Assembly: GCA_008632985.1 (NCBI GenBank)
Contig: QPGO01000009.1
Coordinates: 62,001-126,000 of the forward strand
DNA length: 64,000 bases
Direction: 5' to 3'
Source: Psammoneis japonica
Taxonomy: Eukaryota
Position numbers and translations under genes: made by a program. Under the pieces are notes generated by a model. That model ran no database searches. It was not told where the DNA came from and was given only the letters and a program-made list of their open reading frames with translations. Below, piece by piece: positions 39,714 through 44,064 of this stretch. The number at the start of each line of letters is the position of its first letter. Position 1 is the first letter of the stretch.

Positions 39714-42700
39714 ATGTCCTCAGAATTGGACGAGAAAGGTTTGTTTTCGATTGATGAAGGTCCTCACAACGAGGGACGGCTGAGCGGCAATTCGAAAGGC
39801 TCCCGTCCAGAACGAAGGCCGAGTTTGCATGGGATGCAGACACCGAGATTGCCTACCCGTAGTCCATCTACTTCCAGTATTCACGGTGATCCTACTCCTC
39901 CGAGACGCGAACATGCTCCAAAGCCTATAGAATCTATTCGAAGAAACAGGACTCGGGGAGCAAGCCGTGCTGAGTCTGTCAGGAGCTTGCTTGTTCCTCA
40001 GAAAAACGAGGACCTCTCTTCTGCTGCTCCTCGTTCGAATGCAAACCAGCGAGAACAACCATCGGAGCCACCAAGAAACATTCCTGATGTACCCCAGGAG
40101 GCCACATACCCAGGTGGTACGGGGCAAGCCATGGTTCAACCGCTTCATCCACCGCCCCTTCCATGCGGGTTGCCACCATATTACAACATGTACATGTACC
40201 CAGCACCGCCGCTCCCTGCTAACATGTATCCTCCTCCCAGCATGCATGACCAAGCACCGTTCCAGCAGCAGCAGCAGCTGCTGCAATTGCCTTCAGGTGC
40301 TGCTCGCGCTCCAGCTGTCGAGGAAGACACCTCCTCCCCTGCCGTTCGCACCATGCTCAAGAGCATCCGTTCCAAACCTGTCGTTTTGTTTGCAGAAGAC
40401 TCGACCGAGGTGGCTGGTCGTTGCCGTGTGGTCCTTAAGATTCTTTCCAATCTTGGAGTGGATGCCGACAACGAAATGGTTGTGTACACGCTTGACACGC
40501 GTAATGATGGACCCTTGCTGTCTCGTCAGCTGACACGCATGACCGGATACGATAGCGTTCCCGTTCTTTTTGTCGGTTCCAAATGCTTTGGTGACTACCA
40601 GGCCATTCTGTCTCAGTGCCGCAGCGATCAACTCCGCCCCCGTCTTATGGATGCCGGCGTCAAGTCGGTCGTCACGGCCATTCCCACTACGACACTCGAA
40701 GACAACATCTTTGGATACCCCAAGGCGCTAGCAACCGGACAGCAACGGCGCTCCGGAGCAAGCACCATGAATGTCTTGATTGCCTGCTGCGGTTCCTCCG
40801 CATCCGACAAGATTCCGGAATTGGTCGAGCGCTGCGTAACGCAGCACGGGTGGTCCGTCAAACTTGTTTGTACCAAACCGGGGGAACACTTTTTCAAGTC
40901 GTTTGGAATGGAACGTGTCATTAACGCGATTGGATCGGAAAACATCTACCGCGACGAGGACGAGTGGAGCTTTGAGTACGAGCAATTTGACATGCCAGTC
41001 CGTGCCTGTCACTTGGCCATTCGCAAATGGGCCGACGTTCTCGTGGTCGCGCCAATCACTTGCAACACAATGGCAAAGGCGGCCGCAGGCATTGGCGATA
41101 ACCTGCTATCGTCCGTACTGGTGGCGTGGGAGTATCACAAGAAGCCCGCCATCTTTTGTCCAGCGTGCAACGTCGACATGTGGAATAATTATCCTACCCA
41201 GCGCAACGTCAAGACTCTCAAGCAAATGGGAGTTGAAATGTTGGGCCCCCGAGTGGACAGGCTTACCAACGGGCAAGTGGCAATCGGTTGCATGGAACGA
41301 GTTGGTGTCATTTTGGACAGGTGCGTAGCAATTTGCTTCATTTTTGCCGCGGTTTTGGGTTGTAATTTCATGTATGATTTATGCTGCTCTCGTACCCATC
41401 GACATGACCTCTCTTAGGTTAAAGAGGGAAGAGTCAATCCTTTTGAACGGCAACGTCTTCTTCTTTAGCCGTGCCAAATTGGCTGCGCTCGAAGACGACG
41501 ATGATCTTTGGCACTTGGTGCTTCGTGGTGTTGAAGAAGGTGTGATGGATCCCAATGCACAATTGGAAGAGAGCGGAAGTACTCTTCTTCACTTTGCAGC
41601 TGGTGGGGAGAGTTTTGCCGATGAGGGTGGAGTCAGGTGGGGCAAGCCGGATCACTATCCTCTTGGCAGGCTTCTGGAGCTGGGAGCCGATCCCAACATT
41701 ACGAACAATTACCAATTCACGCCACTGCATGTAGCGATGTCAACCGGTGATGCTCATGCGGTCCGTATGTTGCTCGAAGCAGGAACTGACGTGACGGGAA
41801 CTCTGATTGACTTTCCAGACGTTGCGTCGGGCGTTCGAGAGTTGCTGGAGACAAAGGAGGATGCCTTCAGGTTGGTGACCCCGTATTACTTCACGTATGG
41901 ATCATTGAAACGGGGATTTCCGAACTACGAGAACCACTCAAAGCACCTACAGAGATTTGTTGGCGCGGCGAAGACGGTGGAGAAGTATCCTCTGGTGATC
42001 CCGAACGTTCCTCAATGGTAAGTGGTGACATGACGTTCCGACAGTCGTTGCTTTTGTCAGGAGAAATCACCTAACACTTCTTCAACTGAATCTATATAGC
42101 CGTAATCCAAACTGTCCTTATCTGCATCAACAAGCCACCCTTTGTAACTTTCCCGGAAAAGGCCTTCGAGTCGTTGGGGAGGTGTTCGAGGTTACAGCGC
42201 AAGACATTCAAGACTTTGACAAGTTGGAAGGCTTTGGCGGTGGAAACATTCTAGATAACGTTTATACCAGAGCTCTTGTAGACATTGAGGTGGAAGGCAA
42301 GGGAGTGGTGAGAGCCTATGTCTACTTCACATCCGACGGAGATGAGGCCATGCGGCTTGTCGAGCTTAACGAAGGCAACTTCATCGAAGAATACTTGATG
42401 ACGATGGCTCAGGGAGAGCTGAAACCCAACTTTGTTTCGGCCGAAAAGAAGTTGGCTCGTCGTACATCGATTCGTAAGATGATATCAAGCTCGGATTTAT
42501 CGCTGGCAAGTAGCATAGCTCCTCCTTTCGGGAGAAACAAGAGAATGGCGGCACTCCCCGAGAAAGAACACGAGGAGCGAGATCACGATCATTCCCATCC
42601 CCACAACGATCATAGCCATTCGCATGACCACGGCGAAGACGAGTCGAATTTCGCCGACTTTGTCCCGGTTCTTGTCCGCGAGGATCATTCACGTTCTTCA

Positions 42701-44064
42701 ACCCACCAAGACGAACTTATCCATGAAAACTTTGGGACCATTCAGCAGGTACGAGTGGTCACTTGCGTTTTCATCCATTATTTCTACACCATTTGTTGCT
42801 CACTCCGCTCGTTTGTCTTGACCGTCAGGCGATAAACACGTGTAATTTGGCCGCAATTAAAATGGCTCTCAAGGTTCTGGGCGTCAATTGCCCAATGGAT
42901 GATATTTTTTCGTCCTTGAGACTTCCCACATCCTGGGTTGTCGAGCAAGGTTTGACGCTAGCTCAAGTGTACATTGTGCTATTGAAACTCTGTGGTTCGC
43001 ACAATCCAGCAGAGGCGCTCGCTCCTGGGCTTGATGTAGAATGCTTTCACTTTGACCAAGACTTTGTGGATTACGACTGTTTCACTAAATATCTTAAGGA
43101 GAGTATTGGCAACGAGGATGACGTGTTGATTGCCAATTTCTCCACGAAAATTGCCAGAGACATGCAGAGCGGAGGTGGACACTTTTCTCTTATTGCTGGT
43201 TTTGATGAACCTTCAGAGACTGTTACTATCGCGGATGTTCATCCGCAGAAGTATGGAGCACGCTGGAATTGTTTGGCTAAGAAACTTTTTGATGCTATGG
43301 TGGACAAGGACAGCAGTGTCCGTCGATCCCGCGGCATGATTCGAGTGGCCTACAAGAACACCACTCCAATCCAATGCCTTAGCATGTGCCAACGTGCCGT
43401 GTCGTTTTACGATTCCAGGTATGATGAAGAGATGATTGATTGGCTGGGGCGCTGGGGTGACCTGCCTGCGTCGTCGTTCGAGAGCCATCTAAACATGGGA
43501 GGAATGAATGGATTGGGACTTTTGTTAAGCGGTTTCTTGTCGCAAGATGACTATGATTCGCTTTGCCTTCCTGGTCATGTGAGCGCAGACTATTTGGCTT
43601 GGAGTCTTCGACTGAGCGTCGTTCACCTCCTTTCTGAACTCGTTTCTCCTCGAACCCTTACCAGCTATGCTCGACGCGCGTGCGACAAACTCCAGCTCAA
43701 TCTACACATAAGCGCTGAGCTCGCTGATACCCATTCTCCTGATACACTCTGGACTTGGTTAAAAGGGCGTGTTGGACCGTCTCATTCTGCCGCCGCTTTG
43801 GTCTTGTTGGATATTAATGTTGCCTATGGCACAAATCTCATGAACACGGCTGTGGGCAGTGAAGCTGCTCTTCTTGATCACGGCGCTCAGCATTGGTGCG
43901 TGGTAGTTGCCACGGATAACGAGGACGTGATTGTCGCAGATCCTCGTGCTAAAATGATGACGAGGCTTTGGAAGTGCAGCGCAAAACGACTCCGTGATGC
44001 TCTCTTGAGAGCAGAGAAGGATCCTGGTAGGGTGGTAATCATCGGAAACGTGAAGGTGGAGTAA
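39714..44064 (+). CDS. 1363-aa fusion: glutaredoxin-like / HFCD (PPC-decarboxylase, HAL3-type) flavoprotein / ankyrin / gamma-glutamylamine cyclotransferase / His-rich linker / phytochelatin synthase x2; exons 39714-41320, 41418-42017, 42100-42748, 42829-44064
   Basis: Three GT-AG introns join four ORFs in frame (4092 nt). Motifs: TGYDSVPVLFVG; HLAIRKWADVLVVAPITCNTMAK and PACNVDMW; TPLHVA; YFTYGSLKRGFPN and GEVFEV..DKLEG; QAINTCNLA, GGHFSLIAGF, IADV. Confidence 0.88.

Follow-up and report, generated by a model that had tools for sequence, protein, structure and literature searches.

A marine multi-domain fusion of HFCD, GGACT and phytochelatin synthase-like modules with a predicted role in stripping glutathione

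The locus and its gene model

We analysed a 64,000-nt stretch of contig QPGO01000009.1 from the Psammoneis japonica assembly GCA_008632985.1 (positions 62,001 to 126,000, forward strand; hereafter the window). At 39714-44064 of the plus strand it holds an open frame of 1363 amino acids built from four exons, which are joined by GT-AG introns of 97, 82 and 80 nt. The frame encodes a glutaredoxin (Grx)-fold domain, an HFCD flavoprotein domain related to phosphopantothenoylcysteine decarboxylase (PPCDC), ankyrin (Ank) repeats, a GGACT-type gamma-glutamyl cyclotransferase and two phytochelatin synthase-like domains (PCS and PCS'). Its features are as follows.

39714..41320, +, exon 1: N-terminal low-complexity region (aa 1-205), then the Grx-like domain, a conserved linker and the greater part of HFCD
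40341..40673, +, Grx-fold domain without a redox CxxC/CxxS motif
40767..41430, +, HFCD flavoprotein, nearest to eukaryotic PPCDC; H433 (41010), N486 (41169) and M489 kept
within HFCD, +, replacements: N519 (41268) for Cys175, C485 (41166) for Met141, D365 (40806) for Ile33
41321..41417, +, intron 1, 97 nt, GT-AG; acceptor set by homology
41418..42017, +, exon 2: last part of HFCD, ankyrin repeats (about 41473-41880), first part of GGACT
41893..42442, +, GGACT-type cyclotransferase; catalytic E779 (42227), 11-residue insertion with C736 and C741 just before H745
42018..42099, +, intron 2, 82 nt; interrupts the codon of the invariant C736
42100..42748, +, exon 3: remainder of GGACT, variable linker, start of PCS with Q951
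42569-42631, +, His-rich stretch of the GGACT-PCS linker, not conserved
42728..43362, +, PCS-like papain-fold domain; C957 (42841), H1070 (43180), D1088 (43234); Arg152/Arg183 equivalents lost
42749..42828, +, intron 3, 80 nt
42829..44064, +, exon 4: PCS and PCS' through the stop codon
43420..44061, +, second PCS copy (PCS'), inactive; Gly at the nucleophile position (43498)

The gene model is not fixed by the sequence alone, because 104 GT-AG combinations keep the frame open; it is fixed by homology. The intron-less homologue P0001 aligns to the 1363-aa model with 62% identity over 1230 columns, and among the five homologues shown the alignment is gap-free across junctions 1 and 2 in all five and across junction 3 in four, the exception (P0073) having two extra residues. 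The collinear alignment of intron-less homologues over all three junctions supports the single spliced frame that a preliminary description of this DNA had proposed. That invented introns join separate genes is largely refuted by the same collinearity, by a 1161-aa diatom homologue derived from a transcriptome and by bacterial open reading frames (ORFs) that run uninterrupted. A 1346-aa splice variant with an alternative acceptor was rejected, as it opens a 17-residue gap in which residues conserved in the homologues are lost. The genomic ORFs P0337 and P0338 leave homology at the QQ position that is the site of intron 3 in the window gene, and the two genes presumably share this intron position.

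On the exons, Pfam backs the earlier calls of Flavoprotein (4e-24), Ank (5e-11), GGACT (9e-5 and 2e-8) and Phytochelatin (5e-15), while the Grx match is weak, with Pfam Glutaredoxin (0.03) and NCBIfam Grx (8e-9) both below cut-off. Two cyclotransferase motifs reported as matched, YGTLKRG and GEVY, in fact read YGSLKRGFPN and GEVF in the window.

The modules are kept in two domain orders

Among 1872 candidates, a search of the length range 938-2675 aa found 16 long homologues, all of which carry the Flavoprotein, GGACT and Phytochelatin domains. The window order occurs in six, and a permuted order (cNMP-fold, PCS, PCS', Grx, HFCD, Ank, GGACT) in ten, the two named proteins of this order both being from Ruegeria. 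A pattern scan of species genomes located the permuted fusion at 55 loci in marine bacterial genomes, 32 of them titled Ruegeria or Silicibacter and the remainder belonging to other roseobacters, SAR116-related bacteria, Halieaceae, Aestuariirhabdus and Rhizobiaceae. The fusion is rare, with 5 carriers in a family sample of 401 genomes that includes the centre genome, and no relatives turned up in viral contigs, in plasmids or among 399 further genomes sampled from the class to which genome G011 belongs, one genome being unscored. In an ESM Atlas cluster of 117 members the three families are present in 95-100%, and a Detonula transcript lies in the cluster of one homologue; fusion sequences are known from diatom, dinoflagellate, Roseobacter, SAR116-related and Halieaceae sources. 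A quick tree of the Grx-to-GGACT block places 31 bacterial-order rows on one side (support 94) and nine eukaryotic rows on the other; it covers 28 of the 55 bacterial loci, and its neighbour labels rest on ORF calls in which a few genes were overlooked. The retention of the same modules in two domain orders in distant lineages argues that PCS, HFCD and GGACT are coupled and act together.

The system is real and conserved, and apparently undescribed. Neither the fusion architecture nor a gamma-Glu-Cys decarboxylase came up in full-text searches of a literature with few subscription journals, and database names of the homologues are 'flavoprotein' or 'hypothetical'. The newness would lie in the system, whose function is predicted and whose domains are all members of known families. 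The fusion departs from PPCDC, phytochelatin synthase and redox Grx in the residues that define them, yet keeps their folds.

Active sites of the HFCD, PCS and GGACT domains

Active-site counts were taken from an alignment of 89 partly redundant sequences, in which totals vary by domain (PCS 74, HFCD 85-88, GGACT 80). The HFCD domain has the superfamily fold and the PxxN-x2-M motif, with the catalytic His in 86 of 88 rows and the Asn and Met in 85 of 88, the remainder being gaps. Its nearest solved relatives are the PPCDCs AtHAL3a and human PPCDC (E 2e-30; PDB 1MVL, 1E20, 1QZU), with which it shares His90, Asn142 and Met145. It differs from them at Cys175, which is replaced by Asn in 84 of 85 aligned homologues, by Ser in one and is Cys in none; at Met141, where 83/85 carry Cys within a PACN motif; and at Val30/Ile33, replaced by Ser/Asp. 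The Asp is invariant (85/85) and would suit a charged gamma-glutamyl amine. The divergent eukaryotic relatives P0344 and P0345 have no Cys at either the Cys175 or the Met141 site. NCBIfam coaC/coaBC scores of the domain lie far under cut-off. Unlike PPCDC, it is joined to Grx, Ank, GGACT and PCS, and a separate HFCD gene is present in all five bacterial genomes tested (CoaBC-sized in four), so the fusion HFCD is probably free of CoA duty.

His90, Asn142 and Met145 of AtHAL3a drive oxidation and decarboxylation and the reductive half-reaction requires Cys175 (PMC9604783); HFCDs acting on peptides synthesized by the ribosome and modified post-translationally (RiPPs) and on holomycin do not proceed past the enethiol and depend on a free thiol (PMC11350588, PMC8549060), and those of the EpiD type do not turn over S-alkylated substrates (PMC8549060). 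Like LanD/EpiD, MrsD and the holomycin enzyme, the fusion HFCD keeps the His and Asn and has no Cys at the clamp position, so that its chemistry may end at the enethiol, although the new Cys at the Met141 position (83/85) could substitute for the clamp cysteine. It differs from them in a weaker sequence match (E 1e-7 to 2e-10) and in its likely substrate, a dipeptide. In flanks of up to 10 kb at the 55 bacterial loci, genes for non-ribosomal peptide synthetases (NRPS), dehydratases or RiPPs are not among the recurring annotated neighbours; ORFs shorter than 90 aa were not called, and a small precursor peptide would escape.

The PCS domain has a papain fold with Gln, Cys, His and Asp-or-Glu kept in 73, 72, 74 and 74 of 74 rows. 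In the window these are the oxyanion Q951 and C957/H1070/D1088, so the Cys-His-Asp triad described earlier is present. Lys185 (73/74) and Tyr186 (74/74) are also kept. The Arg152 position (Arg173 in NsPCS) and the Arg183 position hold Thr/Val/Met and Pro and never Arg (74/74), which sets the domain apart from phytochelatin synthases: both arginines belong to the second-substrate cavity, and AtPCS1 R152A keeps 0.02% of synthase activity (PMC3855540). The top structural and sequence match is NsPCS (Alr0975; Foldseek E 2e-8), which is mainly a hydrolase that converts glutathione (GSH) to gamma-Glu-Cys and Gly (PMC12065762, PMC3855540), and NsPCS is also the best match of the predicted fold of the bacterial N-terminal half (pLDDT 83, pTM 0.83). 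Other papain-clan families score weakly in Pfam (C39; BtrH_N, E 0.25). Relative to NsPCS and AtPCS1, the fusion shares the fold, the catalytic residues, Lys185 and Tyr186, but lacks the two arginines, carries a tandem inactive copy and lies inside a multi-enzyme chain. The degenerate second PCS of the preliminary description is borne out, since PCS' is homologous to PCS (HHalign 97% for eukaryotic rows, 45% for bacterial rows) and has Gly in place of the nucleophile. An algal survey distinguishes three diatom PCS types, none of which, in the available text, resembles the fusion (PMC11314372). We also observed that tandem PCS-like proteins occur on their own as a broad family in eukaryotes (P0071, P0077, P0079, P0090, P0096, P0116-P0124), some with at least two repeats, myristoylation-like Met-Gly starts, EF-hands or glyoxalase domains, which looks like a signalling-linked PCS clade.

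The GGACT domain (best solved match E 1e-10) has the GGCT fold and the YG motif, and catalytic Glu82 is kept in 78 of 80 rows. The N-terminal YG motif, the YPL motif and Glu82 align with GGACT/A2LD1 (PDB 3JUB, 2KL2), but the fusion copy is part of a longer chain and carries the 11-residue insertion, which no solved GGACT has; its two Cys and the His that follows them are invariant (80/80). GGACT prefers gamma-glutamyl-amines over gamma-glutamyl amino acids. The Grx domain has lost its redox motif, DPWS standing in 10/10 rows of one bacterial alignment and in most bacterial homologues; the Cys of the window's Grx is not conserved and is Ser in P0001 and P0002. In the bacterial fusion the N-terminal domain has a cyclic-nucleotide-binding (CNB) fold that matches the CNB domains of PKG and PKA. 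Its phosphate-binding cassette is degenerate in 21 rows aligned to PKG (Gly to Tyr/Phe, Arg to non-basic), which makes direct activation by cAMP doubtful.

The GGACT-PCS linker contains 12% His in the window versus 0-2% in ten other linkers. These linkers (window 42443-42727 and ten homologues) also hold 15 basic [RK]R-x-[ST] motifs versus 2.8 expected from shuffles, a post hoc count over 11 related sequences with overlapping motifs included. Motifs of this kind are PKA consensus sites, and here they might be what corresponds in eukaryotes to the link with a cyclase described below for bacteria.

A proposed glutathione-stripping mechanism and its alternatives

The residue patterns suggest a three-step enzyme that strips GSH and whose decarboxylase ends at the oxidised stage, a reading to which we give a probability of roughly 0.4. 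The core that it has in common with the cysteamine alternative discussed below, with GSH entering and Gly, CO2 and 5-oxoproline leaving, is rather likely. The fusion, the coupling of its modules in two orders and the residue pattern are observed; the substrate, the order of the steps, the end product and what Grx, PCS' and the insertion do are deduced from residues and gene context. In the first step the PCS domain, paired with its inactive copy probably as a single-chain dimer, would hydrolyse GSH to gamma-Glu-Cys and Gly and so free the Cys carboxylate; Gly is placed first because HFCD chemistry requires that the thiol and the carboxylate of Cys both be free. In the second, HFCD would use FMN to oxidise the free thiol to a thioaldehyde, and loss of CO2 would give gamma-Glu-aminoethenethiol, which an HFCD without the PPCDC cysteine would not reduce back. 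In the third, GGACT would remove 5-oxoproline and free a C2 amino-enethiol, after CO2 loss because GGACTs prefer gamma-glutamyl-amines. The amino-enethiol would be reactive, and would either be trapped by a partner or decay, yielding an aldehyde together with ammonia or sulfide. A metal bound by the Cys-x4-Cys-x3-His insertion may keep the thiolate in place, and the Grx, which lacks its cysteines, may serve to bind the glutathione part.

The gliotoxin (GliG/K/J/I), ergothioneine (EgtA-E) and butirosin (BtrH/G) pathways use GSH or gamma-Glu-Cys as a building block and, like the proposed route, strip Gly and gamma-Glu stepwise. In those pathways the sulfur stays on the conjugate and a C-S lyase is used, whereas here a single polypeptide would decarboxylate Cys while its thiol is free. 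If the proposal is true, a single enzyme converting GSH to a C2 amino-thiol would open a new branch in marine sulfur metabolism and would add a third substrate class for HFCDs, which to our knowledge are known only on phosphopantothenoylcysteine and RiPP/NRPS peptides. The soluble, intron-less bacterial protein (for example Ruegeria WP_171666673.1) makes this chemistry accessible to liquid chromatography-mass spectrometry. In the bacterial genomes tested, gshB is present in 4/5 and the fusion is the only PCS-family (PF05023) match in 5/5.

Several observations weigh against this mechanism. Once released, an amino-enethiol is unstable, and the bacterial neighbourhoods hold no conserved enzyme that would trap it. 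In sequence the HFCD matches the reductive PPCDCs (E 1e-30) better than it matches EpiD/MrsD (E 1e-10), and the new Cys at the Met141 site could take over the role of proton donor, which would favour cysteamine. GSH may not be the substrate of the PCS domain, because identity to NsPCS is only about 22-24% and the two family arginines are lost. The modules also occur apart, as Grx-HFCD-Ank alone (P0341, P0342), without PCS (P0335), as cNMP-PCS-PCS' alone (P0092) and as many stand-alone PCS-PCS' proteins, and the dinoflagellate transcript P0073 is a degenerate copy of the fusion in which the PCS Cys and the GGACT Glu are gone.

CoA breakdown is a known source of cysteamine. Its formation here, by redox-neutral decarboxylation to gamma-Glu-cysteamine followed by release of cysteamine and 5-oxoproline, with the PACN Cys or water as proton donor, is the leading alternative, though a distinctly less probable one. 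The relation of the HFCD to PPCDCs and the Cys at the Met141 position are consistent with it, and gamma-Glu-cysteamine is a plain gamma-glutamyl-amine, the type of substrate that GGACT prefers. A stable amine would also suit the channel gene that neighbours the bacterial fusion, cysteamine being the most potent agonist tested on the prokaryotic channel ELIC (EC50 0.365 mM; PMC3119659). However, the Cys175 equivalent is never Cys, and P0344 and P0345 have neither cysteine. This residue pattern leads us to favour the oxidised product, and the otherwise invariant new Cys keeps cysteamine open. The GSH-to-cysteamine route of the preliminary description is supported in its Gly/CO2/5-oxoproline logic, its coupling and its catalytic residues, and its end product is less certain. 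Its extension to a taurine precursor lacks the next step in the bacteria tested, as neither thiol dioxygenase family (ADO or CDO) has a match in any of the five bacterial genomes tested, which may be incomplete.

It is unlikely, although conceivable, that the coupled modules act on a non-glutathione substrate, the PCS domain serving as a papain-like peptidase or acyl-transferase on another gamma-glutamyl or Cys-terminal molecule. The gamma-Glu would then be a protecting group taken off last, as by BtrH/BtrG in butirosin synthesis. The loss of both arginines would fit such a substrate, as would the weak scores to C39 and BtrH_N and the occurrence of PCS-PCS' elsewhere with EF-hands or glyoxalase domains. 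On the other side, NsPCS is the top match in structure and sequence, the Grx fold and the gamma-glutamyl cyclotransferase in the same chain point to GSH, and conserved biosynthetic genes were not found near the bacterial loci.

Synthesis of phytochelatins for metal handling, or their tailoring, the latter raised earlier as another role, is very improbable. The intact triad, Lys185 and Tyr186, the standing of the fusion as sole PF05023 gene of the tested genomes, the window's His-rich linker and the Cys2His motif in GGACT speak for it; yet no homologue has Arg at the position whose mutation nearly abolishes synthase activity in AtPCS1, the His linker is not conserved and metal-resistance genes are absent among the recurring annotated neighbours. 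Least probable among the enzymatic alternatives is the breakdown of glutathione S-conjugates, whose tailoring was also proposed before, to cysteamine conjugates: PCS enzymes do process such conjugates (PMC3561135) and a glutathione S-transferase gene lies near one locus (L048), but HFCD chemistry begins at a free thiol and EpiD is inactive on S-alkylated peptides.

A cyclase and a channel beside the bacterial fusion

Within flanks of up to 10 kb, a gene for a SAM-cyclase-STAND-TPR protein lies near the fusion in 44 of the 55 bacterial loci (one match partial), a gene for a 380-aa membrane protein, the putative channel, in 40, and both in 39. The cyclase is of class III and of the STAND type, with the SAM domain, both Asp, Lys, Asn/Arg, Walker A and TPR kept, motifs that we take to be class III catalytic residues and a STAND ATPase. 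The cyclases fall into three groups with 29-37% identity between groups and occur in three gene arrangements. In five loci the cyclase gene shares the strand of the fusion and is 38-128 nt away from it. In 4/5 genomes no cyclase gene matches better than the adjacent one, which is the sole match in two. Beside the cyclase, genes for further proteins with cNMP domains (a CBU_0592-type membrane protein, a SulP transporter) occur at L042:8965-9774, L047:5547-6347 and L045:5024-7273, and the cyclase may serve these rather than the fusion.

In 39 loci at most 100 nt separate the channel gene from the fusion gene, and in a further locus the distance is under 5 kb. The protein has no Pfam match, and it was identified by fold and not by sequence search. 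The predicted fold is that of a pentameric ligand-gated ion channel (pLGIC; AF2 pLDDT 81; Foldseek E 6e-13 to GLIC/GABA-A), with a beta-sandwich extracellular domain, four transmembrane helices and a Pro-loop; a structure comparison (VIA) gave Z 18.9 and rmsd 3.8 with 276 aligned, and a YPFD motif aligns with GLIC (E 0.1). In the 401-genome sample the channel occurs in seven genomes and is adjacent to the fusion in four of the five fusion genomes. A second, Cache-fused channel at L048 is about 30% identical to the channel of the Roseobacter cassette. A general link is disfavoured by several observations: the pairing is mostly that of one Roseobacter cassette, a channel match is absent in 14 of 21 fusion-bearing genomes, many of them incomplete metagenome-assembled genomes, and the degenerate cassette of the cNMP-fold domain makes direct cAMP activation doubtful. 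A general enzyme-channel pairing was also not found among 83 further channel-family loci, of which 81, many of them short, are without the fusion; two hold the fusion and one the cyclase, and only 31 have at least 3 kb upstream.

The ELIC gene adjoins a gene for an amino-acid decarboxylase that was proposed to make its ligand, and the natural ligand was stated as unknown in 2011 (PMC3119659). In both cases a prokaryotic pLGIC lies beside a decarboxylase. In contrast to the ELIC locus, the channel here is of another subfamily (11% identity to ELIC), the decarboxylase uses flavin rather than pyridoxal phosphate, and the genes are convergent in the Roseobacter cassette. No sequence alignment of the channel to ELIC, whose amine site comprises Glu77, Glu131 and an aromatic box, was obtained. 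The available text of a study of prokaryotic channel neighbourhoods mentions binding proteins and Cache domains and not the fusion enzyme (PMC549065). We consider it a speculative and rather improbable idea that the fusion is a signal synthase, making CoA-independent cysteamine or its enethiol from GSH, for which the marine bacterial pLGIC and the STAND-TPR cyclase would be receptors, and that diatoms make the same molecule. If true, diatoms and Roseobacter would share a chemical signal, and a prokaryotic pLGIC would have a natural ligand. The adjacent channel opens to test the question of how prokaryotic pLGICs are naturally gated.

Several further features were seen around these loci. Distant channel-family loci (L063-L142; e.g. 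L079:8161-9138, L073:63-2345, L077:4423-5799) often lie among genes of contractile injection systems (CIS): of the 83 metagenome loci, 29 have an extracellular CIS (eCIS)-core cluster, 14 an AAA ATPase and eight a CIS tape-measure cluster, with one representative of each neighbour cluster scanned. A second pLGIC-like gene occurs in six of the 83. The SAR116-related loci L030, L032, L050, L051 and L054 have, at a distance of a few genes, TauD-like dioxygenases, short-chain dehydrogenases and a 169-aa protein without annotation, neighbours that other clades do not share. In a single Halieaceae case (L052:16286-17527) a gene for the ergothioneine synthase EgtB, which uses gamma-Glu-Cys in some bacteria, lies 3 kb downstream.

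Other features of the window

Upstream of the fusion gene, two CNNM-family transporter genes (27370-28861 and 35620-37102) lie 8 kb apart and share 98% identity over 1.5 kb, which reflects either a recent duplication or an assembly artefact, and a ribosomal protein S11/S14-family gene is found at 37428-38096. An assembly gap (44990-45126) begins about 0.9 kb downstream of the fusion gene, and a reverse transcriptase/RNase H ORF lies at 61465-63477.

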